From IMG/VR virus record IMGVR_UViG_3300042870_001966: a stretch of DNA of 64,000 nt; one strand, given 5' to 3'. Below are positions 29,343-45,647 of the stretch, piece by piece. Every line of letters begins with the position of its first letter. Position 1 is the stretch's first letter. Origin of the DNA: a virus (Duplodnaviria > Heunggongvirae > Uroviricota > Caudoviricetes). The translations under genes were made by a program, and so were the position numbers. The notes under the pieces were generated by a model. It was not told where the DNA came from, ran no database searches, and saw only the letters and a program-made list of their open reading frames with translations.

Positions 29343-29723
29343 ATGAGAAAATCAAAAGCAACCGCAGCTACCAAGGTATCTGCACCAGCGGTAAAGGCCG
29401 CAACTCCTTCAACAACAAAGACCGCAAAAACTGCGAAGTCTAAAAAATCTACTGGGTCTACTGTTTCAGCGGTAACCGTAACAGCTACCGTTTCAACGGG
29501 TCGTAATGCTGGCCGTAAAGGTATGAGTTACGCAAAGTTAACTCCAGCTCAAAAGTTAGAGGTAATCTCTGCTCGCAAACGTCGTGGAGATAACTCAATG
29601 GTAGCTACGAAATTAGGGGTAGACTCTAAATTGGTAAGCGCTGTCGTAACTGGCCGTAAGTCAGACATGCGAGTTATGAATGCCCTATACAATACTGTAC
29701 GTGGCCGTAAGGTAACTGCATAA
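29343..29723 (+). CDS. basic DNA-binding protein: Lys/Ala/Thr-rich tail plus HTH-like domain
   Basis: MRKSKATAATK...KTAKTAKSKK, then VATKLGVDSKLVSAVVTGRK. Confidence 0.65.
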   Translation: MRKSKATAATKVSAPAVKAATPSTTKTAKTAKSKKSTGSTVSAVTVTATVSTGRNAGRKGMSYAKLTPAQKLEVISARKRRGDNSMVATKLGVDSKLVSAVVTGRKSDMRVMNALYNTVRGRKVTA

Positions 29724-32508: not shown

Positions 32509-32736
32509 ATGGGCAATGAAGTAATCGCAAAAGACAAGCAGGACTGGTGGAGACTTGTAAGACAGGATCTAGCCCAGTGGAATCTAAAAAACCACAATGA
32601 AGATAACCTAAGTATTCAAGATTGGATAGGCGAGGTGGGTCCGAAGATCCACGGAGGTATTGCGTTTAGAGACAGATACGGAGATTGGGATGTATCCCTT
32701 TCGGACCATGATGAAGATGAAGAAGACTCTTGGTAA
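32509..32736 (+). CDS. early hypothetical protein
   Basis: Follows an early promoter. Confidence 0.7.
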   Translation: MGNEVIAKDKQDWWRLVRQDLAQWNLKNHNEDNLSIQDWIGEVGPKIHGGIAFRDRYGDWDVSLSDHDEDEEDSW

Positions 32737-32837
32737 TTGTTAATAACTTCTGAAAAATAAATCACAAAAAGTTTTTTAGTCTCAAAAGTTCTTGTTATAT
32801 TTACTTTATAAATCAAACCAATTAAAAACAAAACATT

Positions 32838-32978
32838 ATGAAAAAGGGAATTATCTTAGAAGGAGTTATGATGGTATGGGCGTTCACGCTAATGGCAATG
32901 GTCGTAGTAGGAATTGGATACGCAGCATTTAATGTCTTAACTGGAAACGTACACGGAACTGCAAGTTTTGAATTTTAA
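32838..32978 (+). CDS. small early membrane peptide (not in ORF track)
   Basis: MKKGIILEGVMMVWAFTLMAMVVVGIGYAAFNV..., 46 aa, after an early promoter. Confidence 0.6.
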   Translation: MKKGIILEGVMMVWAFTLMAMVVVGIGYAAFNVLTGNVHGTASFEF

Positions 32979-33173: not shown

Positions 33174-33241
33174 CCATTACTGAAGAACTGATGTACTGGG
33201 CCGAGAGATCGGCCCTTTCTTTTTTTGGTAAGATATACTTT

Positions 33242-34189
33242 ATGAAGAAGATAGATTCAAAGAATATAGTTAGAACAGTTGCTGATAACCGCGAAAGCTT
33301 TAACCGGTATTTGCAGGAAATCCGCCGGACTCCGGTTCTCTCGAGCGAGGAAGAGATAGCATTGTTTAGGCGGTTTAAAGCTGGAGACCCGACCGCGGAA
33401 CAGCGGATTATAAAAGCGAATCTGCTTTTTGTAATTACGGTTGCCAAACAGTATTCAAGCCTAGTCAACAAGACCAGCCTAACACTGGAAGATCTGGTTT
33501 CTGAAGGTAATCTTGGTCTGGTCAAGGCGGTTCACAGGTTCGAGCCGGACCGTGGGTTTAAGTTTATATCATACGCGGTTTTTTGGATTAAACAAGCAAT
33601 ACTAGATTGTCTTCAACATAATGTCAAGACGGTTCGTGTTCCAAACTCTGCCCAACTAATTGTAACTCGGGCTCTAAAAGCGGCGGAGCAGGTTGAGCAC
33701 AAGACCGAGCGTAGCGCAACGTTTGAAGAAATAGCAGATATCGTAGCGGCGGATCCAGCAATGTCAGATACCAAGGTAACTGCGTCTAGAATAGCTGAGG
33801 TCTTAACCGCAACAAGTTGGGAAAAGAGTCTTAATCAAAAGATAGACCCGGACTCGAACGAAGAATTTATAGACAGCCTTGCTTCAAGTATATCAACTGA
33901 TTCAGATCTGCTTGGTCTCGAGAAAGAGTCTGTGGTTGAAGCAATGCTCAAAACCTTGAAAGGAGATAATCGCTTGTTTATAGTAAAGCATTACGGTCTC
34001 GATGGATACCAACCGACTCCAATAAAGACAATAGCGGAAGAATTCGATTGCAGTGTCGAGACGGTTAGACAACGGATTAAATTATCTTTTAAATTATTAA
34101 AGAAGAATCAAAAAGATAAGTTAAGATATTTTAATCCTAATTTCCGAGAGTCAGCCATTGCATATACCCCGTTTGGCAGCGGTTGGTAA
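33242..34189 (+). CDS. RNA polymerase sigma-70 factor (RpoD/RpoS-like)
   Basis: Region 1.2 YLQEIRRTPVLS; region 2 NLLFVITVAKQY, DLVSEGNLGL, GFKFISYAVFWIKQAI; region 4 HTH. Confidence 0.92.
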   Translation: MKKIDSKNIVRTVADNRESFNRYLQEIRRTPVLSSEEEIALFRRFKAGDPTAEQRIIKANLLFVITVAKQYSSLVNKTSLTLEDLVSEGNLGLVKAVHRFEPDRGFKFISYAVFWIKQAILDCLQHNVKTVRVPNSAQLIVTRALKAAEQVEHKTERSATFEEIADIVAADPAMSDTKVTASRIAEVLTATSWEKSLNQKIDPDSNEEFIDSLASSISTDSDLLGLEKESVVEAMLKTLKGDNRLFIVKHYGLDGYQPTPIKTIAEEFDCSVETVRQRIKLSFKLLKKNQKDKLRYFNPNFRESAIAYTPFGSGW

Positions 34190-35930: not shown

Positions 35931-36167
35931 ATGGCGTCTAACATAACATTTACAGTTGAATACACGGATTCACGATCTCAAACCGGTAGAATTTCCGCAA
36001 GTGTTGATATTCCAATGGAGCTTCATGAGAGCTTAAATCGAGACATGCAGTTCGGTGGTCAAACATTTTCCCGATGGATAGAGAATAATTTGATTCCTAA
36101 CATTATATCCGTGATCGATCCCTCGAGACCGTGGAGAGTTGTCGATCCATCCATCCAACGAGTTTAA
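35931..36167 (+). CDS. hypothetical protein
   Basis: 78-aa ORF. Confidence 0.65.
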   Translation: MASNITFTVEYTDSRSQTGRISASVDIPMELHESLNRDMQFGGQTFSRWIENNLIPNIISVIDPSRPWRVVDPSIQRV

Positions 36168-36219
36168 AAATAATTCACAAAAAGTTTTTTACTGTCAAGT
36201 ATTCTGCTTATATTAGCTT

Positions 36220-36269
36220 TATAATTAAACGGTTCGCCTAACAAGCGCAGAGGGTATACTCCGACCTAC
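36220..36269 (+). repeat. 50-bp repeat, copy 1 (candidate small RNA)
   Basis: 49/50 identical to 40381-40430; both lie directly after an early promoter. Confidence 0.85.
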
Positions 36270-36376
36270 AATAAACTTTTTAGATTGTTAATAACTTTTC
36301 TGAAAATAATTAGCCAAAAATTTTTTATTGTCAAAAGTTCTTGTTATATTTACTTAATCAATTAATTATTACCAAT

Positions 36377-36820: not shown

Positions 36821-36953
36821 GAGTTCTATCCCAATTCGGATTCCTGCCTACCGCATAGTCGGACTCCCTAGTAAAATAAGTCATAATAAATTTTTTAGTG
36901 TCAATTATTCTTTTTATATTTGCTATATCAATTAACTCTTAAATCAAACCAAC

Positions 36954-37394
36954 ATGAAAAATCAAATCATTAACTCAGAAAGAATCGGCCAAGTAGACTT
37001 TATAACAGGTCAAGCAGGCGAATACCGCGCAATCGTTAAAGTTCAGGCCGGATTCATGACGGTAGTAAACGACCATGGAATCCAGTCTAAATGGTCTAGC
37101 GGCGCAAGCTGGAAGACAGCAATGGATGTTTTCCGCGGATTCAAGAAGGGAGCTTTACAAACCATCGAGTTCAGAGCGGAAGGCTTTAATACATGGTTAA
37201 CTGTCTTCGCCCGCAAAGGTAACACGATAATCCTAATGGATACTGCAATGTTTCTTGAAATGGAGGTAGGCGATATCAATCAGGACTGGTCTAATAGTAA
37301 TCTATACAGTCAAACTAATTACAGACTGTGTAACGCTAAGACTTGGGCAGACAAAGCGTTCGTCCGAAACAGCCAAGAGGAAGTAGCTGCTTAA
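36954..37394 (+). CDS. early hypothetical protein
   Basis: After an early promoter. Confidence 0.75.
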   Translation: MKNQIINSERIGQVDFITGQAGEYRAIVKVQAGFMTVVNDHGIQSKWSSGASWKTAMDVFRGFKKGALQTIEFRAEGFNTWLTVFARKGNTIILMDTAMFLEMEVGDINQDWSNSNLYSQTNYRLCNAKTWADKAFVRNSQEEVAA

Positions 37395-37494
37395 CTCCCT
37401 AGTAAAACTTTTTAAAAATAAGTCATAAAATATTTTTTTATATCAATTATTCTTTTTATATTTGTATCATATTAATCAATTAAAAAATCAAACC

Positions 37495-38223
37495 ATGAAA
37501 AATACAAGATTCGAAACAAGTGCGGGACTACCCCAATACTTTAAAAGCCTGGACGGATTGGCTAGACCGTTAAGTAAATGCGAAGAAGGAGCGTTAGCTG
37601 ACAGAATCCAGTTAGGAGATGACGAAGCGCTTAACTCCCTAGTCACCGCGAACCTTAAGTTCGTTGTAACCTTAGCCAACAAGTTTATTGGTATGGGTCT
37701 GCCAATCGATGACCTCATCCAAGAAGGAAACGCTGGTCTAATCGAAGCCGCTCGCAAGTTTACGTCAGACAAAGATGTTAAGTTTATTACTTACGCTCAG
37801 TTCTGGATTCGCAAGCGTCTTAACCTTGCTCTTTGCGACTTGGGAAGAACCGTTAGAATTCCAGTAAATCAGGAATACGATCTTTACAAACGTAAAATGA
37901 AAGGCGAAGAAATCAATCTTACTAACGTTGCGATTGACAAACCAGTCGGGGACGAGGACAGTGCAACAACAATCGGCGACTTGATTCTTAAGACCGATTT
38001 CGCTGATCCATTCGAGAACCAAGAGAGAGACATGATTCTTGCCCGATTACTTGGCAAATTAAAAGCAAGCGATCGCCAAATCGTAGAGTTATTTTATGGA
38101 TTGGTTGGCGATGGATTATCAACAAAAGAAATTGCAGAGTTAATTGGTAAGACTCCATCAGAAGTAAATCGTTCTCTTAAAGTTGCTAGAGCGCAAATGA
38201 GAAAGGAGGTAGTATCATGCTAA
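37495..38223 (+). CDS. second RNA polymerase sigma-70 factor
   Basis: NLKFVVTLANKF, DLIQEGNAGLIEAARKF, VKFITYAQFWIRKRL, region 4 STKEIAELIG. Confidence 0.92.
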   Translation: MKNTRFETSAGLPQYFKSLDGLARPLSKCEEGALADRIQLGDDEALNSLVTANLKFVVTLANKFIGMGLPIDDLIQEGNAGLIEAARKFTSDKDVKFITYAQFWIRKRLNLALCDLGRTVRIPVNQEYDLYKRKMKGEEINLTNVAIDKPVGDEDSATTIGDLILKTDFADPFENQERDMILARLLGKLKASDRQIVELFYGLVGDGLSTKEIAELIGKTPSEVNRSLKVARAQMRKEVVSC

Positions 38224-38432
38224 CAATGGAACACGCAAGTACCATGGCCGAGATGGCGGTAGATATACTCTTTGCAGAAGGAGATCTATTTAAAGGTAAG
38301 GTAGATAAGGACTCCCTAGTAAAAGAGATCCAGGCAGCAACCTTAAAGAAGCTGGTTATAGAAGATTCAGACTTCTTAACCGAAGAAGAGTTCCAAGCCT
38401 GTCTGGAAAATGCCAAGAAAAACAGTAACTAA
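38217..38432 (+). CDS. hypothetical protein
   Basis: Coupled to the sigma gene. Confidence 0.7.
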   Translation: MLTMEHASTMAEMAVDILFAEGDLFKGKVDKDSLVKEIQAATLKKLVIEDSDFLTEEEFQACLENAKKNSN

Positions 38433-38450
38433 TATTTAAAATCTAAAACC

Positions 38451-38711
38451 ATGTATAAATTAGGAAACAAATGGTCGCACAACTTCGACTACGACGGAAT
38501 GCTAAAGGCTGGCTCGGAAGTAACAGTGGATACTTCTCTAGAAGACTTGGAAAAATTGCACGATTCTTTTGAAGATGTCAATTACCATACGGAATCCGAA
38601 CCGCTTTGGAACGCAATCATTGCCAAGCGAAACGGATTCGACGGACCGTACTTTACACAGAGTATTAACGAGTTCTCGAGTCTATGCAAAGAGTGTTTAA
38701 CTGAACAATAA
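38451..38711 (+). CDS. hypothetical protein
   Basis: 86-aa ORF followed by a terminator. Confidence 0.7.
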   Translation: MYKLGNKWSHNFDYDGMLKAGSEVTVDTSLEDLEKLHDSFEDVNYHTESEPLWNAIIAKRNGFDGPYFTQSINEFSSLCKECLTEQ

Positions 38712-38800
38712 TAATCCATCTTTTAACTAAAGGGGTCAAGGCGAGAATCTTTGACCCCTTTTTTAGTATAATAGATATAGCCAAAATAAATAAAAAGGTT

Positions 38801-39070
38801 ATGTCAGACTTAAATAATTATACAAAGATTCTATTGGACCTCATCCATCTAAGACAGACGGATTACTCGGCCTTTATGAATCGCTTGTACGAAGCCTTGA
38901 CTGGAGAATTTAAAGATGTAATACATGATAAGAGTCCAGTTGAAGATAAGACTCAAGCAATATGGACTATGATAAAACATTTTGAGAAGAACGAAGAGTT
39001 CGAGAAATGCGCTGACTTGAAGAAGTTAGCTGACGAATTAGATCCAACCTATAAACCCGTAAACCACTAA
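38801..39070 (+). CDS. protein with UVR-like C-terminus
   Basis: EEFEKCADLKK; AGTATAAT upstream. Confidence 0.65.
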   Translation: MSDLNNYTKILLDLIHLRQTDYSAFMNRLYEALTGEFKDVIHDKSPVEDKTQAIWTMIKHFEKNEEFEKCADLKKLADELDPTYKPVNH

Positions 39071-39249
39071 CCTATGCCAATGTGTATCCTAGCAGGAATC
39101 CTAGTTATAGTAGCTATCCTGTACAATTTCAAGAAAGAAGAATATTAATAATTGATTATTGGTTTGATCAGTTGATAAAGAAAGGGTTCTCGAAAGGAGC
39201 CCTTTTCTGGTTTCTTAGTATAAGATATAAAAGATAATACTTATTACAA

Positions 39250-39558
39250 ATGGCAGTTGCATTAATTAAACTTACAATGGGTACCCGAATTCTAGAGTTT
39301 ACCCCAGCCCAGGTTCAGGTAATTGAATATAATTCTGGAGAAAACAATATCCGTATTGCTCTTGTCGGCGGATACACAATAGACTTCGTAACGCCCAGCC
39401 CGGCCGACGCGTTGGCCAAGCTGACCTTGCTCGAGACAGCTATGAACAGTGGAACCGGTATTGCGTCTATCAACGATCTCAACACGGCGGCTACGACAAC
39501 AACTACGACCGCTGCTCCTCCTACTACGACCTCTTCTCCTGGCGGACCGTCCGCTTAA
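39250..39558 (+). CDS. hypothetical protein with Thr/Pro-rich tail
   Basis: AATTTTTTAAPPTTTSSP. Confidence 0.65.
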   Translation: MAVALIKLTMGTRILEFTPAQVQVIEYNSGENNIRIALVGGYTIDFVTPSPADALAKLTLLETAMNSGTGIASINDLNTAATTTTTTAAPPTTTSSPGGPSA

Positions 39559-39663
39559 CTTCAAATTGTTAATAACTTTAGTTGAAAATAATTGTGAAAA
39601 AGTTTTTTAGTCTCAAAGATTCTTTTTATATTTACTCTATATTAATCAATTAAAAAACAAACC

Positions 39664-40053
39664 ATGGAAAAATTAGTTTTAGTTAGATTCGGACAAGCAC
39701 CAAGTCCAGTAGTATCAAGAGCATTAGCACCACACATCGTTGGTCAAGCAGTTGCCGTTCCTGTCCCAGGCGCGATCCTTTCAGTATTCAATACAGATTC
39801 TAATTTGGATCGGGTATGCGATGACATCAAGGAGACCGGAGCGTTCTTCATCTTAGCTCGATTCAACGATATCAATATCGAGTTACCGGAAGAACTTATA
39901 CAAGTAATCCACAAAGCAATGGGGACCTCAACTCCAACTCCTCACGAGACCGAAAGAGTCTATACAATGGACGAGTTGTTAGACCTCATCTCGAAAAACG
40001 GAATTGATTCTTTAACCCAAGATCAACGTCAACAATTAGAGAACCTCGGATAG
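39664..40053 (+). CDS. early hypothetical protein
   Basis: After an early promoter. Confidence 0.75.
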   Translation: MEKLVLVRFGQAPSPVVSRALAPHIVGQAVAVPVPGAILSVFNTDSNLDRVCDDIKETGAFFILARFNDINIELPEELIQVIHKAMGTSTPTPHETERVYTMDELLDLISKNGIDSLTQDQRQQLENLG

Positions 40054-40095
40054 GGGTTCTTTTCTCGGTTAAATATAATCAAATAATTAATTCTT

Positions 40096-40308
40096 ATGAA
40101 AGAGATTCTAAGGTTATACATCGAAACAAAAGGTCAAGAGACCTGCGTTAAAGACCCAAAGGAAATGATAAAGATTCTTTCCAAATCCAAAGCAGACATA
40201 GACCTAGACTTCGAGTACGGCGGTCGTGTAAAGATGGGTTCAAGTCGAGAGTTCATAGGCCAAACAGTAAAGGTCGGAGACCACGAACTTGAAATACCAG
40301 CCCACTAA
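40096..40308 (+). CDS. hypothetical protein
   Basis: 70-aa ORF. Confidence 0.65.
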   Translation: MKEILRLYIETKGQETCVKDPKEMIKILSKSKADIDLDFEYGGRVKMGSSREFIGQTVKVGDHELEIPAH

Positions 40309-40380
40309 TTGTTAATAACTTTCCCGAAAATAATTAACCCCGGATTTTTTAGATTCGGGGTTTTTTTTGTATATTTACTC

Positions 40381-40430
40381 TATAATTAAACGGTTCGCCT
40401 AACAAGCGCAGAGGGTAGACTCCGACCTAC
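40381..40430 (+). repeat. 50-bp repeat, copy 2 (candidate small RNA)
   Basis: See 36220-36269. Confidence 0.85.
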
Positions 40431-40558
40431 GTGGTACCCAGAAGTTATGAACACTCAATTGTTAATAACTTTTTTTAAAAATAATTCACAAATAATTTTT
40501 TAGTGTCAAAGTTTCTGCTTATATTTGTACTATATTAATCAATTAAAAACAAACCAAT

Positions 40559-40816
40559 ATGCAGACATCATTTCAGCCAATCACACCGGAAGTTTTAAAA
40601 CAAAGACTCCACGTAGCAATCACGAAGTTCTTCTTCGTAAAGAAAGATGGATCCCTAAGAGAAGTAATGGGAACCACTAATTTGAACCACATCCCCGCGG
40701 ATAAACACCCACAGGGCGTACGAGAAACGCCACCATCTGTAATCGTGTTCTGGGATCTCTTAGCGGGAGATTGGAGAAGCGCTAAAGTAGAAACTCAATT
40801 CTTTATTAACCACTAA
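40559..40816 (+). CDS. SH3-like beta-barrel (WYL_2/DUF2693-like) protein
   Basis: FFFVKKDGSLREVMGT...FWDLLAGDWRS. Confidence 0.65.
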   Translation: MQTSFQPITPEVLKQRLHVAITKFFFVKKDGSLREVMGTTNLNHIPADKHPQGVRETPPSVIVFWDLLAGDWRSAKVETQFFINH

Positions 40817-40829
40817 AACCAAAAGGATC

Positions 40830-40997
40830 ATGGCAACACAAGAAGCAATAGACGAAGCAAAGGAATTATTCGGCGAGGACGTCGTATTCCAAGTAATGGA
40901 GGTAGTCGCAATGTCTGACGCAGACGGAGCCTACACAATGTTCGAAGATCAAGGAATGTTTGAATTCGCTGAGGCTGTAGAGTTCCTCTATTTTTAG
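40830..40997 (+). CDS. small acidic protein (not in ORF track)
   Basis: MATQEAIDEAKELFGED..., 55 aa. Confidence 0.6.
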   Translation: MATQEAIDEAKELFGEDVVFQVMEVVAMSDADGAYTMFEDQGMFEFAEAVEFLYF

Positions 40998-41063
40998 AGA
41001 AAACTGTAGCCCAAATAGATAAAACTGTAGTACATTAGTATAAACAATCAAACCAAAATAATT

Positions 41064-42197
41064 ATGCAAGAACTTAAAATCGGAAAAAAAGAGTTAACTG
41101 TTAGAAACTTCTTCGAGCGCCACCACAACGGCCGAGTTCCTAACCTAACCGTACAGCAACTGTACACGCAGTTCATGACGCAAGAAGCTGACTGCACAGG
41201 AATATCATACGGATTATTTAACGGCGTAATTAAGAAACTACGCTTCGAGACGGGAGACTCCCTAGTCCCCGGTCCAGGCCAAAGCACTGTCGCACGTCCA
41301 ACCGCCGAAGCCCAAGCAGACGCAGACGTTGAGATCAGCGACGAGCCAGAGATCTTCGAGATTGGAGCAATGGATTTTCCAGACTTCAAGAAGTTCTTAA
41401 CTGGATCTGTGTTCGACAAGTTAATGTCTGACCATGACGAAGAAGGAGGAGTATTCGCTGGTACTGCCAATATTGTTATCGGAGAGTCGGGAGTTGGTAA
41501 GTCAACTATTACATTAGACCTCTTAGCTAAGATTAAACAGAAGCAACCGGATGCGAAGGTCCTCTACATCTCAAGTGAAATGACACGTAACGATCTTTAC
41601 TTCTATTACAGAAAGATGCCGATCATCGAGACAATCCCAACCCTCTTGATTATGGATTATCTAATGGGTCGTTTCGACAAGACCTTGGAGAAGGCAATCA
41701 ACGGAGACTACGACGTAATCCTAATCGACTCGCACCAAGACATTATTGTAAAGCTGAAAGATGTTCTAGGCTGGAAGAGTACCAAAGCCGAGACATGGTT
41801 AACTAACCTCATCATCGAAGCTGCGGACAAGAAAGGAAAAGCAATCTTTGCAATCCAACACATGACTAAAGGCGGACAGTACGTAGGCTCGACCTACCTC
41901 AAACACGCAACCACAAGCATGATGGAAATCCGCAAGGACGAAGCCGGCCGCCGCTACGCTGAATTTACAAAGAACCGCCGTGGAGGTAGCCTAGTCGGCA
42001 AGCGATTGTACTACTCCCTAGTAGACGGAGAGGTTAAATGGGACGAGAACGCATGGAGACAGGAGAATGTTGTAGCAGATCTTGCGGAACAAGAGTCTGA
42101 CCGCCGTCAACGATTGGAAGGAGAGTTCAACAATCTTTTCCTAAGCGTAAAACGCCCAGCAACTGACGAGACCCCGACCGCAACTGAAGTAGAATAG
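41064..42197 (+). CDS. RadA/Sms-like RecA-fold ATPase (no Lon-type C-domain)
   Basis: Walker A GESGVGKST, YISSEM, Walker B ILIDS, HMTKGG..VGS..LKH, KNRRG. Confidence 0.8.
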   Translation: MQELKIGKKELTVRNFFERHHNGRVPNLTVQQLYTQFMTQEADCTGISYGLFNGVIKKLRFETGDSLVPGPGQSTVARPTAEAQADADVEISDEPEIFEIGAMDFPDFKKFLTGSVFDKLMSDHDEEGGVFAGTANIVIGESGVGKSTITLDLLAKIKQKQPDAKVLYISSEMTRNDLYFYYRKMPIIETIPTLLIMDYLMGRFDKTLEKAINGDYDVILIDSHQDIIVKLKDVLGWKSTKAETWLTNLIIEAADKKGKAIFAIQHMTKGGQYVGSTYLKHATTSMMEIRKDEAGRRYAEFTKNRRGGSLVGKRLYYSLVDGEVKWDENAWRQENVVADLAEQESDRRQRLEGEFNNLFLSVKRPATDETPTATEVE

Positions 42198-42252
42198 TCG
42201 GAAACTGTTGAAGAAAATTTAGTATATTAATCTTATAAAAAACAAATAGAAA

Positions 42253-43371
42253 ATGATAAGTCAATCGCAATTCGATCAAGCCAAAGCGGACCTAGCAGGA
42301 AACAATCCACTAGTGAAACGCGTAAAATTATCTGATATTGTCCTTAACGACAATTCAATCAAACACAACTCTATCGAGATAGAGGGTTCACGTGTCCCTG
42401 TGTCCAACAAGTTCTTTAATAGACTAGGTCAAATGGTTAACCTTAACGCCGGCCTAATCAATAAGATGAACAAGAACGAGGACAAGGATATTGAGACCAA
42501 GTTGTTGCAGACTATAAAGTCTTATTCAGAAACCAGAGACGGAGCAAAAGAGTTCCTTCTTATCGGAGACGCTGGAAGCCATCAGGTAACCAATATTGTC
42601 CGAGCTGATAAGTACAATAGATTGTCTAATGAGACTCTATTCGCGACAGCCGAGACCATGATGAATGAAATCCCGGACATGCATATCGAGTCAATCGACA
42701 ACAACGGGCCAGGCGGAGTAAGTATAAACCTTATCCACGGCAGCCAAGTTGGCTACGAGAGAATCGGTAAGGACGAGGTCTTCAGATTCGGAGTATCCTT
42801 GGTAAATACCGGAACCGCAAGTCGAGTGGACGATTTCTTCTACCGTCTGTCATGCGCAAACGGTGCAGTCGCTAGAAACCTAAACACTGCGTTCGAGTTT
42901 GGAAACGGCGACGATGCTTTCCGCAAGTTGCTAGACCAAATGAATGGTTGGGCCAAGACCGGGTTCGTACCTAAAACTTTCCAAGACAGATTGGAGCGAG
43001 CAATGGTAACCAAAGCAAGCTACGCCGAAGTTGAGCGAGCTCTACACTCGGTAACTGGAGCTATCGATAATAAAAATTTCGATATGCACGCTAAATTAGT
43101 ACGTGGAGCTGAGGAACAATTCTTTCCAGAGTACGATGCGGCAACCAAACGAATCTTCCGTGCAGGCTTTAACTCTATGCAGTTGACCGATGCTCAAAAG
43201 AAGTTCATCAAGACTGATGCAACTATCTGGGACGTTGTTAACGAGTTGACATGGATTGGAAGTCACGATACAATCTTCGACCTGAAGAACAATAAAAACT
43301 TCAAGGTAGCGGGTGGAAGCCTCTTCACTAAAACATGGGACCTTGAGCACGCAGGATTAGCTCAAATCTAA
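42253..43371 (+). CDS. DUF932-like protein
   Basis: FGVSLVN...YRLSCANG resembles the DUF932 RLxCxNG motif. Confidence 0.6.
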   Translation: MISQSQFDQAKADLAGNNPLVKRVKLSDIVLNDNSIKHNSIEIEGSRVPVSNKFFNRLGQMVNLNAGLINKMNKNEDKDIETKLLQTIKSYSETRDGAKEFLLIGDAGSHQVTNIVRADKYNRLSNETLFATAETMMNEIPDMHIESIDNNGPGGVSINLIHGSQVGYERIGKDEVFRFGVSLVNTGTASRVDDFFYRLSCANGAVARNLNTAFEFGNGDDAFRKLLDQMNGWAKTGFVPKTFQDRLERAMVTKASYAEVERALHSVTGAIDNKNFDMHAKLVRGAEEQFFPEYDAATKRIFRAGFNSMQLTDAQKKFIKTDATIWDVVNELTWIGSHDTIFDLKNNKNFKVAGGSLFTKTWDLEHAGLAQI

Positions 43372-43730
43372 ACACTAAATACAACTATGACTACCCTAAA
43401 AGGGGTCCTCAGAAGGGACCCCTTTTTTGTGTGAATAGGGATCACTCCCTAGTCCCATTACCCCTGACCAACTGATCTCTTAAGGTAGTTCTTAGCCGCC
43501 TTGCTGCGAGAGCTCTTGCTCTTTGCATGCACGCCCGGACGTTTACGTTTAGAGCTCGGTCTGTGTACAGAACCGGTAGCTCCCGCTTTTGCTTTAGCCA
43601 TCAGTGATATTATATTTTCTTATTATTTAATCCCAAAATCCGTGCAGTCCCGGCATGGGTTCTGGACCCTACCCCAGCTCGAGGGGTTTTCGCGCACAGT
43701 AACCTTCAACCGCCGGAAATAAATAACCTT

Positions 43731-44240
43731 ATGAAAAAGGAATTAGCAGCAGAGGATCTTGATTTTATCAGATTCTGTATAGAAGAACTGGAGATCGAGA
43801 CCAGCCCCAATATCAGCATAGGCGACGACCATAACAAGGCCAAGCAGGTCCGAGCTATGGGTTACTATACACCAGTGGATAACCAGATCTGGGTACTACG
43901 CGGACTCCGGGTAGCAGCTGACTGGTACCGGACCCTAGCCCATGAATTGGTACATTGGCGCCAGCGCGAGTTGGGCCAGCAGATGGATGGTTCGGATGGG
44001 TCAGACCTGGAGAATGAAGCTAATTCTAAAGCTGCAGTCCTACTACGTGAATGGGGCAGAAGGGATGAAGCAATCTATAGCGAACCAGTGGTGGAGACTC
44101 AGGATGAAATGAGTAGTCCACGGACGCAATACTACCTGGAGTACTATGGTAACCTTAGCCCATCAGGCTTCAGTCTCTCTACTGTAGGCGAAGAGGTCCG
44201 GATTACAATTCCCCCATCAGATTCCTGGCCTCAAGTATAA
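43731..44240 (+). CDS. HEXXH zinc-metallopeptidase-like late protein
   Basis: RTLAHELVHWRQ...ENEAN; ATAAATAA 5 nt before the ATG. Confidence 0.7.
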   Translation: MKKELAAEDLDFIRFCIEELEIETSPNISIGDDHNKAKQVRAMGYYTPVDNQIWVLRGLRVAADWYRTLAHELVHWRQRELGQQMDGSDGSDLENEANSKAAVLLREWGRRDEAIYSEPVVETQDEMSSPRTQYYLEYYGNLSPSGFSLSTVGEEVRITIPPSDSWPQV

Positions 44241-44841
44241 GGTTAGTAAGGTCGTCTTTAATCTCGTCCCTGTACTCTTGTCTGTGCAGGGTTTTTTGTA
44301 TAACATGTAATTCAACACCGTGCCAGGTTAGGAATCTCTCGAATAGATCTGCACCAGCAAAACGAGCCATCCGGTCCGGGGTTTCCATAACAACCATCGA
44401 GACCCGCTTGCGCAGGACAGACTCCATAATCTTGTCGAATCCGCCCCTACCTTCTAGGCTACCGGCCTTACCGATATCCCCTATAACCTGGTCTACCCTG
44501 ATCCCGGCCCGGGTACAGTACTCTAGGACCCTGTCCTGCTGAGCCTGCAGCCGCTTCTGGCTAGAGACACCGGCCTTGCCCTGGTCCGGGATTCCAGCCG
44601 CCCGGCAGTATACTATCACCTCTCGAGTTTGAGGTAGTCTACTCCCTAGTAGGTAGAGTAGCTGCTGCTTGTCGTAGTAGGTCCGCCCGTTTATAGAGTT
44701 CTTCCACTTATCCACCCGGCCCTGGGCTACGTAACCTTCTAGAGTCTTCAACGAAACCCCTAGGAATTCCGCGGCCTGCTTCTTGTACATGAGTTCCCCG
44801 CTAGGGAAGGGTCTTAGTTCTTGTGTTTGTTCCTGTTCCAT
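44203..44841 (-). CDS. IS607-TnpA-like serine recombinase (N-terminal HTH plus resolvase domain), atypical active site
   Basis: AAEFLGVSLKTL HTH; YCR-[AAGIPDQGKAG]-VSSQKRLQAQ; DIG..GS; VVMETPDRMARF; late promoter at 44847-44853. Confidence 0.8.
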   Translation of the reverse strand: MEQEQTQELRPFPSGELMYKKQAAEFLGVSLKTLEGYVAQGRVDKWKNSINGRTYYDKQQLLYLLGSRLPQTREVIVYCRAAGIPDQGKAGVSSQKRLQAQQDRVLEYCTRAGIRVDQVIGDIGKAGSLEGRGGFDKIMESVLRKRVSMVVMETPDRMARFAGADLFERFLTWHGVELHVIQKTLHRQEYRDEIKDDLTNLILEARNLMGEL

Positions 44842-44855
44842 GGGGTTATTTATCC

Positions 44856-45340
44856 GGGTACCCAGCTGCTGGTCGAGAAGTCCACGGGCCCGGGTTCCCG
44901 CGGTTTCCGGCTAGACCCCGCCTACTCGGGCCCCTCTAGACTCTGGGGCTTCCGGTCGGGCCGCGGAGCCGAGGCAGGGGTTACTCCCTAGTCCCCATAA
45001 ATGCACAGTCTGTATCCTTTGGGCGCTGCCAGCTGCCTGTACTCCCTAGTCCCGAGTAGGCCGGTGGTTGGCTGGGCAGGCTGGGGTCCGGGTCCTGGCC
45101 TAGGTAAGAGTCCGGTACCTTGGTCTTGGCTAGTCTAGGTCTGGGTCTATAGGATAGGGTTCTGAATAGGGTTGGGTATAGGGTCTGGTATACCCGTTAT
45201 TTTTCTTTTTATGTATATAAGTAGACAGAGTCTTGCCTATAGAGTTTCTTCTTAGAGTAGTATAATTTCTTAGAGTAGTAGGGCGCGCCTCTAAGCTTTG
45301 GGACGCAAACGTACCCATGGCCCGGGCCTGGACCCATTGG
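44856..45340. other. GC-rich non-coding island
   Basis: Dense CCGG/GGCC, two ACTCCCTAGT copies, G-runs at 45143-45183. Confidence 0.65.
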
Positions 45341-45356
45341 GTATAATAGACTCTAT

Positions 45357-45447
45357 AGTCAGGTGGCTTAAAGTTGGTTCGACTCCAAAAATAGGATATG
45401 GTATCGTTGCGATCGGAAACTTACAGGTTCGAATCCTGTCCTGACTA
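45357..45447 (+). ncRNA. tRNA-like RNA 1 of the AGTCAGG family
   Basis: Acceptor AGTCAGG/CCTGACT-A, T-arm ACAGG-TTCGAAT-CCTGT; no valid D or anticodon arm. Confidence 0.65.
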
Positions 45448-45521: not shown

Positions 45522-45647
45522 AGTCAGGTGGCGGAATTGGTTAGACGCATGAATAAAGGTTAATAGTAAGGATAACGTGAGTAACCTCGAAAGACCCGTT
45601 AAGACTGCTCATAAGTTATCATACAGGTTCGAATCCTGTCCTGACTA
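45522..45647 (+). ncRNA. tRNA-like RNA 2 of the AGTCAGG family
   Basis: Same acceptor and T-arm, Leu-type D-arm TGGCGGAATTGGTTAGACGC; anticodon arm replaced by a long stem (gataac/gttatc, gtgag/ctcat). Confidence 0.7.

Follow-up and report, generated by a model that had tools for sequence, protein, structure and literature searches.

A 64,000-nucleotide stretch of DNA (the window) from a virus of the class Caudoviricetes (IMG/VR virus record IMGVR_UViG_3300042870_001966) contains ten exact copies of a 10-letter word, ACTCCCTAGT, all of them on the + strand. These copies constitute a real and strongly selected system of oriented sites, tied to a gene for a dead transposase (44203-44841, − strand). 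We interpret the word as a selected, polar, sequence-specific signal, which is most likely a protein-binding site.

The ten coordinates reported by the original prediction, a model's reading of the window, were all reproduced by a pattern search, as were the common + strand orientation of the copies and the lack of a reverse-complement copy. In dinucleotide-preserving shuffles of the window, 0.13 copies of ACTCCCTAGT were expected, and none of 100 shuffles reached ten. Counts of exact and one-mismatch copies had been called for; the latter gave no copy in the window, while two-mismatch matches were at chance level (36 in total vs. 44 expected). The window belongs to a 271,290-bp record that was rated complete by CheckV. 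In this whole genome, the reverse complement of ACTCCCTAGT is again absent, and the word itself occurs only as the ten copies already mentioned, on one strand and within 8.2 kb (ca. 3% of the genome), and so is not spread evenly over both strands or along the genome. Base composition predicts ~0.17 copies per strand genome-wide (Poisson P ~4e-15), and the probability of the nine other copies landing within 8.2 kb is ~2e-14. Once one repetitive gene located outside the window was masked, only tRNA T-arm words exceeded ACTCCCTAGT in frequency among the 10-mers of the genome. On the opposite strand of the genome, no 8-letter sub-word of ACTCCCTAGT is present except for a single TAGGGAGT; on the same strand, only one such sub-word has an extra copy, also a single one. 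Because one-mismatch copies are missing from the window and sub-words are nearly absent elsewhere in the genome, recognition of ACTCCCTAGT is all-or-none. Neither the GC skew nor the gene-strand map of the whole genome has an origin-like turning point at the cluster. In the literature searched, the word itself led to nothing but unrelated nucleosome-positioning DNA, and no paper describing the system was found.

Relatives of the locus were found among IMG/VR contigs with the RadA-like protein encoded within the cluster. Five of them are close (84–90% protein and ~75% DNA identity) and 17 are farther (49–72%). The fetched locus of every relative has 4–12 copies of ACTCCCTAGT or, if the relative belongs to the most distant group, of a variant, ACTCCGTAGT. 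The copies run in the same direction as the RadA-like gene, with the exception of one stray reverse copy that has an atypical flank; the other sites in the set of 156 distinct sites from ~22 contigs are co-oriented. The one-strand clusters of these contigs span 8–22 kb. When whole contigs were scanned, one of 128 kb had its 8 copies within 12.5 kb, a 253-kb genome (94% complete) had 12 within 11 kb, and another 128-kb contig had 15 within 22 kb. Public phage isolates yielded only one RadA-like match, which is 34% identical and is not accompanied by a motif cluster. A 484-kb phage that has a RadA-like gene with no transposase-like gene nearby has no motif cluster.

An alignment of positions 41000–45200 in six genomes has 35% invariant columns. 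The longest invariant runs in this alignment correspond to the three shared motif sites (14, 12, and 11 nt), though a length of 12 nt is also reached by two intergenic runs. Both sites located in the RadA-like gene have identical Ser (TCC) and Leu (CTA) codons across the six genomes. In control columns elsewhere in this gene, where the residue is invariant, the codon was kept in 1 of 13 cases for Ser and in 2 of 23 cases for Leu. Since the Ser and Leu codons of the sites are fixed while other such codons drift, the word is selected as nucleotides and not via the protein. Conservation of the motif at homologous positions, including synonymous ones, which the original prediction had proposed as a check, was thus established by the six-genome alignment and by the codon comparison in the RadA-like gene.

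As was also noted in the original prediction, half of the ten copies are intragenic. Copies 1 and 2 (36863-36872 and 37394-37403) lie at the left end of the cluster. The former is intergenic, just 5′ of an AT-rich promoter-like repeat unit, and the latter, which overlaps the stop codon of an open reading frame (ORF; 36954-37394), precedes the promoter-like unit belonging to the sigma gene. Copy 3 (37634-37643) is inside the sigma-70-family gene (37462-38223), where it is read as AAC-TCC-CTA-GTC, and copy 4 (38311-38320) is inside the ORF 38217-38432; both of these are also found in one of the relatives (L012). The RadA-like gene contains copy 5 (41257-41266, encoding G-D-S-L-V-P), which is part of the 14-nt invariant run, and copy 6 (42013-42022, encoding Y-Y-S-L-V), which is part of the 11-nt run and is retained down to relatives with ~60% protein identity. 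All four of these copies, which are in coding sequence on the sense strand, share the frame xAC-TCC-CTA-GTx. Copy 7 (43444-43453) is intergenic, 15 nt past the terminator hairpin that follows the DUF932-like gene, and there is no copy at this position in the five closest relatives. Copy 8 (44641-44650) is located in the transposase-like gene, antisense to it, within the 12-nt invariant run, and every relative examined has one motif copy inside this gene. Copies 9 and 10 (starting at 44983 and 45041, and together spanning 44983-45050) form a two-unit phased array with a spacing of 58 bp, located 142 bp ahead of the start codon of the transposase-like gene.

A logo built from the 156 sites has an invariant core, ACTCC-S-TAGT, and preferences in the flanks: position −1 is T or G, position −2 is not A, position +10 is A or C but never T, and position +11 is rarely T. 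No other information was detected beyond −2 to +11, within 40 nt on either side. The full site is therefore ca. 12–13 bp long, and in it (T)ACT and AGT(A) are short inverted arms on either side of an asymmetric 4-bp center, CC[C/G]T. A hairpin or cruciform was considered and rejected, as positions −1/+10 to −5/+14 pair no more often than they would under independence. The distances between neighboring sites are quantized, at 56–58 bp (n = 25) or 63 bp (n = 4); in the whole clade, no distance is shorter than 56 bp or falls between 64 and 233 bp. The short spacings are those within arrays of 2–5 units, which are found 140–200 bp upstream of the transposase-like start across relatives, in a GC-rich island. 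The spacers of these arrays vary in sequence and not in length. Since the spacing is quantized in spite of the differing spacer sequences, the fixed 56–58 bp units fit a fixed protein footprint. The original prediction had the sites leading up to a GC-rich island. The island itself is real (44842-45130; 65% G+C vs. 40% in the window), but it is not a separate destination, being the phased array of the same word before the transposase-like gene. Structured RNA was rejected as an explanation of the array: in a relative, the predicted fold of the array does not surpass those of shuffled sequences (z = −0.8 and +1.0 on the two strands). The G+C content around isolated sites is mildly raised (0.49–0.51 upstream vs. 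~0.45).

The gene at 44203-44841 codes for a 212-aa homologue of IS607-family TnpA, with an N-terminal HTH_17/Xis-like winged helix and a C-terminal resolvase fold (Pfam HTH_17 at residues 21–63 and Resolvase at residues 94–188). The protein matches NCBIfam NF033518 over residues 21–202 with an E-value of 8.4e-26 and 90.7 bits, below the 110-bit cut-off, and it is a diverged IS607-family homologue and not an equivalog. Its closest solved relatives by sequence (PDB 3lhf, 3lhk, 3ilx, and 6dgc) are all catalytic domains of IS607-type TnpA, and an AlphaFold model of the protein (mean pLDDT 77) superposes on the same four structures with a TM score of ~0.7. The N-terminal domain of the model matches the folds of Xis (PDB 4j2n, TM 0.70) and RacA (PDB 5i44, TM 0.60). 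In an alignment with seven canonical TnpAs, which have YARVST or YSRVSS around the nucleophile, the protein has YCRAAG, with Ala82 in the column of the nucleophile Ser, followed by an 11-residue loop insertion. In most members of the clade, the nucleophile column is occupied by Ala, Pro, or Gly. As the nucleophile Ser is replaced by Ala, binding, rather than strand exchange, would be expected of the protein. No TnpB-sized ORF adjoins the gene. Wherever relative contigs include this position, the gene is found in the same syntenic place, beside the DUF932-like and RadA-like genes. The lack of TnpB and the constant syntenic position indicate that the gene is not part of a mobile element. A literature search for domesticated IS607 in phages found nothing.

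The transposase-like gene is present in the window and in 20 of the 20 relative loci that span its position, and its orientation relative to the motif is constant. In a density profile that pools 15 non-redundant loci, the density of sites is highest in the 500 bp upstream of the start of the gene (4.4 per kb). It is 1.7 per kb within the gene and 0.2–1.3 per kb over ~12 kb on its 3′ side. On the upstream side, the density is ~0.2 per kb at 0.5–3 kb and zero beyond 3 kb. Two genes had been put forward as encoding candidate binders. The site distribution (the density peak and co-occurrence) points to the product of 44203-44841, while the product of the other one (29343-29723) has no recognizable domain. 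Distant homologues were sought by a profile search of 1.8 billion proteins. Two of them, P0015 (in L055) and P0031 (in L056), are surrounded by CTACGGAG, which is the motif core in reverse complement; its copies are co-oriented, have the same orientation to the gene, and number seven in a contig of 1.6 kb and five in a 2.6-kb part of another one. A third distant homologue has the same gene neighborhood. The contig of the nearest canonical IS607 TnpA (L057), which is short, contains no similar subterminal word.

Two further observations concern these homologues. At L056:2436-2504, ca. 260 bp upstream of the transposase-like gene, there are three 29-bp tandem units (CTGCTCTATTC...), which differ from the 8-mer core scattered downstream. 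In four proteins, P0016 (1015 aa), P0029 (623 aa), P0122 (415 aa), and P0041 (270 aa), respectively 17, 8, 6, and 5 tandem stretches match the transposase-like profile, all of them to its HTH region. These are multi-copy DNA-binding-domain proteins, perhaps reading arrays of sites.

According to work on IS1535, IS607, and ISC1926 (eLife 2018, PMC6188088), TnpA of the IS607 family binds multiple 9-bp direct-repeat motifs beside tnpA and oligomerizes along DNA. Binding is cooperative, with one unit per motif; the protein spreads along DNA and pairs two DNA segments via dimers. The end motifs are helically phased at ~10–11 bp and located within ~60 bp of the terminus, with an inverted set at the other end (PMC6188088). 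The system described here resembles IS607 in the protein family, in domain order (HTH, then resolvase fold), in short direct motifs of ~9–10 bp beside the 5′ end of the gene, and in the presence of 2–5 co-oriented copies no more than 500 bp upstream of the gene, both here and in relatives. By analogy, binding would be expected to be cooperative and filament-like. Unlike IS607, the system has a replaced nucleophile and lacks TnpB, transposon ends, and mobility. Along with the score below the curated cut-off, this makes three defining traits (score, nucleophile, and mobility) that are missing, and the protein would act as the DNA-binding half of an IS607 system does. The sites differ from IS607 ends in their spacing (56–58 or 63 bp), in being distributed over 8–22 kb, including the insides of genes, and in the lack of an inverted set.

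We give an even chance to the possibility that ACTCC[C/G]TAGT is the cognate oriented binding site of the protein encoded by 44203-44841, which would be a domesticated, inactive IS607-family transposase. Such a protein would have kept its winged-helix DNA-binding domain and its resolvase-fold oligomerization domain while its catalytic Ser was changed to Ala. Its protomers would dock in one orientation on the phased array of 56–58 bp units before its own gene, as IS607 transposases do on the direct repeats of transposon ends, and also on single copies across the next 8–20 kb on the 3′ side of the gene. The array may be a former transposon-end array turned into a nucleation center, and the scattered copies may be secondary docking sites. 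The oligomerizing remnant of the catalytic domain could then build an oriented higher-order complex over the module of the sigma, RadA-like, and DUF932-like genes. The complex would act by looping, by spreading, or as a polar roadblock, and may silence or insulate the region. We infer both the identity of the reader, from co-occurrence and the density peak, and the activity of the complex.

Several points weigh against this interpretation. The only link between the protein and the motif is their co-occurrence, and the transposase-like gene is not the only constant one: the sigma gene, an ORF of 89 aa (38801-39070), the RadA-like gene, and the DUF932-like gene are equally constant across relatives, and any of them could encode the reader. 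Both C and G are found at position 6 within single genomes (L019 and L024), and no clean covariation of protein and motif emerged. The 56–58 bp spacing of the arrays is unlike the 10–11 bp phasing of IS607 end motifs. The nucleophile Ser is retained in three homologues (L012, P0015, and P0022), some of which might still be active. Finally, strict co-orientation of sites that are kilobases apart is not required for simple binding. It points to a tracking process or to strand-specific chemistry that the model does not specify.

Comparison with other oriented or clustered sites of this kind gives partial likenesses. The ram sites of Bacillus subtilis occur in a couple dozen copies in one chromosomal region and are read by RacA, a MerR/Xis-type winged-helix protein that organizes the region. 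RacA–ram is similar to the system studied here in the winged-helix domain and in the use of a short word found in one chromosomal region, both inside and outside genes. The ram sites, however, are GC-rich, non-polar inverted repeats distributed over hundreds of kilobases, and RacA lacks a resolvase-fold domain. RacA acts in anchoring and segregation. Xis proteins (of lambda and of mycobacteriophage Pukovnik, PDB 4j2n) have the same small winged-helix fold and bind head-to-tail direct repeats cooperatively, but their sites are few, ~10–20 bp apart, and serve integrase-mediated excision, whereas in the phage locus there are 56–58 bp units and many sites kilobases away.

The original prediction had interpreted the word as a polar protein-binding or translocation signal and compared it with KOPS, Chi, parS, and ter. 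A polar, sequence-specific protein-binding signal remains the preferred reading. KOPS and Chi share with ACTCCCTAGT the short oriented word; they are, however, distributed genome-wide with a strand skew, while the copies studied here are confined to 8.2 kb of 271 kb, and confinement is likewise seen in the relatives of 128 and 253 kb. The parS sites are also clustered in one region and partly intragenic, but they are palindromic and read by ParB. The center of our site (CC[C/G]T) is asymmetric, its orientation is conserved, and no match to the ParB family was found among the module proteins scanned. In Tus–Ter, orientation is functional too; Ter sites, however, face each other in two groups, and all sites of the present genome point the same way. 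In the regional clustering of one word the arrangement recalls RacA–ram and ParB–parS, and in its polarity Tus–Ter, but it belongs to none of these systems. The suggestion of a packaging or DNA-entry signal likewise gained no support. The contig begins and ends with the same 131 bases (position 42 matches position 271201), so the assembly closes into a circle, and the record is labeled linear; such an overlap is as expected for a circularly permuted T4-like genome.

Other functions of the word were considered. It is unlikely, in our estimate, that the word is a DNA-level transcription signal used by RNA polymerase with a phage sigma or accessory factor, either as a one-element promoter or as an ops-like pause or antitermination signal in the non-template strand. 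Such a role would fit the co-orientation of the sites with the + strand genes of the module and the presence of the sigma gene within the cluster, with copies upstream of and inside it. It would also fit several intergenic copies in relatives that are located just past terminators or just before ATAAATA-type late-promoter-like words. T4-type phages use strict single-element late promoters, which may lie inside genes. Yet there is no second conserved element in the flanks of the 156 sites, the words TAnnnT, TAnnTTTG, and ATAAATA are not enriched at any fixed offset, and both sigma factors of the window have region 4, which implies two-part promoters. Some copies are only 1–6 nt ahead of a start codon, four or five copies in tandem at 57 bp do not lend themselves to a reading as promoters or pauses, and copies 8–10, as well as all the arrays, are beyond a + strand terminator (44268-44291), in or upstream of a − strand gene. 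A two-part sigma-70-type promoter was rejected, since no second element and no −10-like word at a fixed offset accompany the sites, half of which, in the window, are intragenic. The terminator also bears on the possibility of a role of the word in RNA (in processing, binding, or base pairing of + strand transcripts), because three of the ten copies are past the terminator, where + strand transcription should have ended. Though co-orientation with the coding strand and the exactness expected of base pairing would be accounted for, this possibility is very unlikely. The phage genome contains no complementary 8-mer other than one chance TAGGGAGT, by which a guide or antisense RNA encoded in the phage was rejected as well; the array has no fold beyond that of shuffled controls on either strand, and the flanks do not covary as a stem.

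The strict co-orientation would be explained naturally if the word were a site of strand-specific DNA chemistry, such as a nick (as in T5, phiKMV, and tf) or a priming site, with the enzyme encoded at another locus of the phage. As no site is on the opposite strand, breaks would be kept on one strand, and the exactness of the word and the lack of degenerate copies resemble nuclease recognition. In T5-like and phiKMV-like phages, nicking takes place at short consensus words of one strand only. We nevertheless regard this explanation as quite unlikely: in known nicked phages the sites are found genome-wide, whereas here all are in 3% of the genome, arrays of 2–5 sites at 56–58 bp before one gene have no parallel among nick sites, and no nuclease gene was seen among the module genes scanned. 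There is, lastly, a slim chance that the copies are recombination sites of an active serine recombinase, as direct repeats would allow excision or shuffling of gene blocks. Recombination would agree with the recombinase family of the adjoining gene, with the make-up of the sites (direct repeats whose short inverted arms flank a 4-bp center), with the variation in gene content between sites among relatives, and with the presence of the nucleophile in the three homologues mentioned above. The protein of the window, however, has Ala82 and the 11-residue insertion, and the column holds Ala, Pro, or Gly in most of the clade. Across the clade, sites in essential-looking genes (two of them in the RadA-like gene) are conserved at identical codons, where recombination would delete gene segments, and no contig was found in which an inter-site segment is missing and a single motif is left at the joint.

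The module over which the sites are distributed includes three conserved + strand genes. They code for a sigma-70-family factor with regions 2 and 4 (37462-38223), a RadA/Sms-like AAA_25 ATPase (41064-42197), and a DUF932-like protein (42253-43371), the last recognized from language-model features only, with a very high score. A gene for a WYL_2 (Sm-like SH3 barrel) protein (40559-40816, + strand, E = 2e-16) is also in the module. A second sigma-70-family gene (33191-34189, + strand), whose product has regions 1.2, 2, 3, and 4, is outside the cluster, 3 kb from the first one. Intergenic units of ~100 bp, composed of a terminator hairpin and an AT-rich promoter-like stretch with TATATTTG, recur between small ORFs (32734-32845, 36163-36365, 36873-36944, 37406-37507, 39562-39670, and 40457-40549) and have many matches in relatives. 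They resemble the promoter–stem-loop cassettes that are said to shuffle genes in T4-type phages. Intergenic words of the TAnnTTTG type also occur.

Words of the form ATAAATAA, similar to the T4 late promoter TATAAATA, are found a few nucleotides before start codons at 43719-43727 and in relatives (e.g., at L026:15493 and L027:14615), the first of these being a 9-nt invariant run in the six-genome alignment. In the lineages with the G variant, several motif copies directly precede ATAAATAA-type words. Rfam and tRNA scans of the GC-rich island detected only two tRNA-like RNAs, located downstream of it (45357-45447 and 45522-45647, + strand). They have a common acceptor stem (AGTCAGG...CCTGACT) and a T-arm, with 41- and 65-nt inserts in place of the D and anticodon arms. 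The Rfam tRNA model matches them at 30.9 and 37.2 bits, and ARAGORN calls no tRNA in either. A TATAAT hexamer (45342-45347) is positioned 9 nt before the first of the two. Outside the window, at genome positions ~198,600-211,600, ca. 13 kb of highly repetitive coding-like sequence dominates the k-mer spectrum, with GTTCCAGAAGAACC present 82 times on one strand.

A broader interpretation of the docking model, which we find possible but doubtful, is that in a clade of huge T4-like freshwater phages an IS607 transposase was turned into a reader of an oriented “address code”, serving as a chromosome organizer or a polar barrier. The array would nucleate a filament that captures co-oriented single sites, and thereby folds, insulates, or polar-blocks the 8–20 kb module with its phage sigma factor and its genes for replication and recombination. 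Such a role would be comparable to those of RacA–ram, ParB–parS, and Tus–Ter, but built from a dead serine recombinase. If true, this would be, to our knowledge, the first IS607-type serine transposase tamed by a virus into a sequence-specific DNA organizer, and its cis code would be a clear and directly testable one, consisting of one exact word in one orientation in one genomic region. In practice, the word marks the module diagnostically, and the protein–site pair could become an orthogonal part for DNA targeting. The strict polarity hints at coupling to a directional process, i.e., replication, transcription, or DNA translocation. Since the system is conserved while the reader protein has diverged to ~30% identity, it is probably important for the infection cycle of this widespread group of uncultured huge phages.

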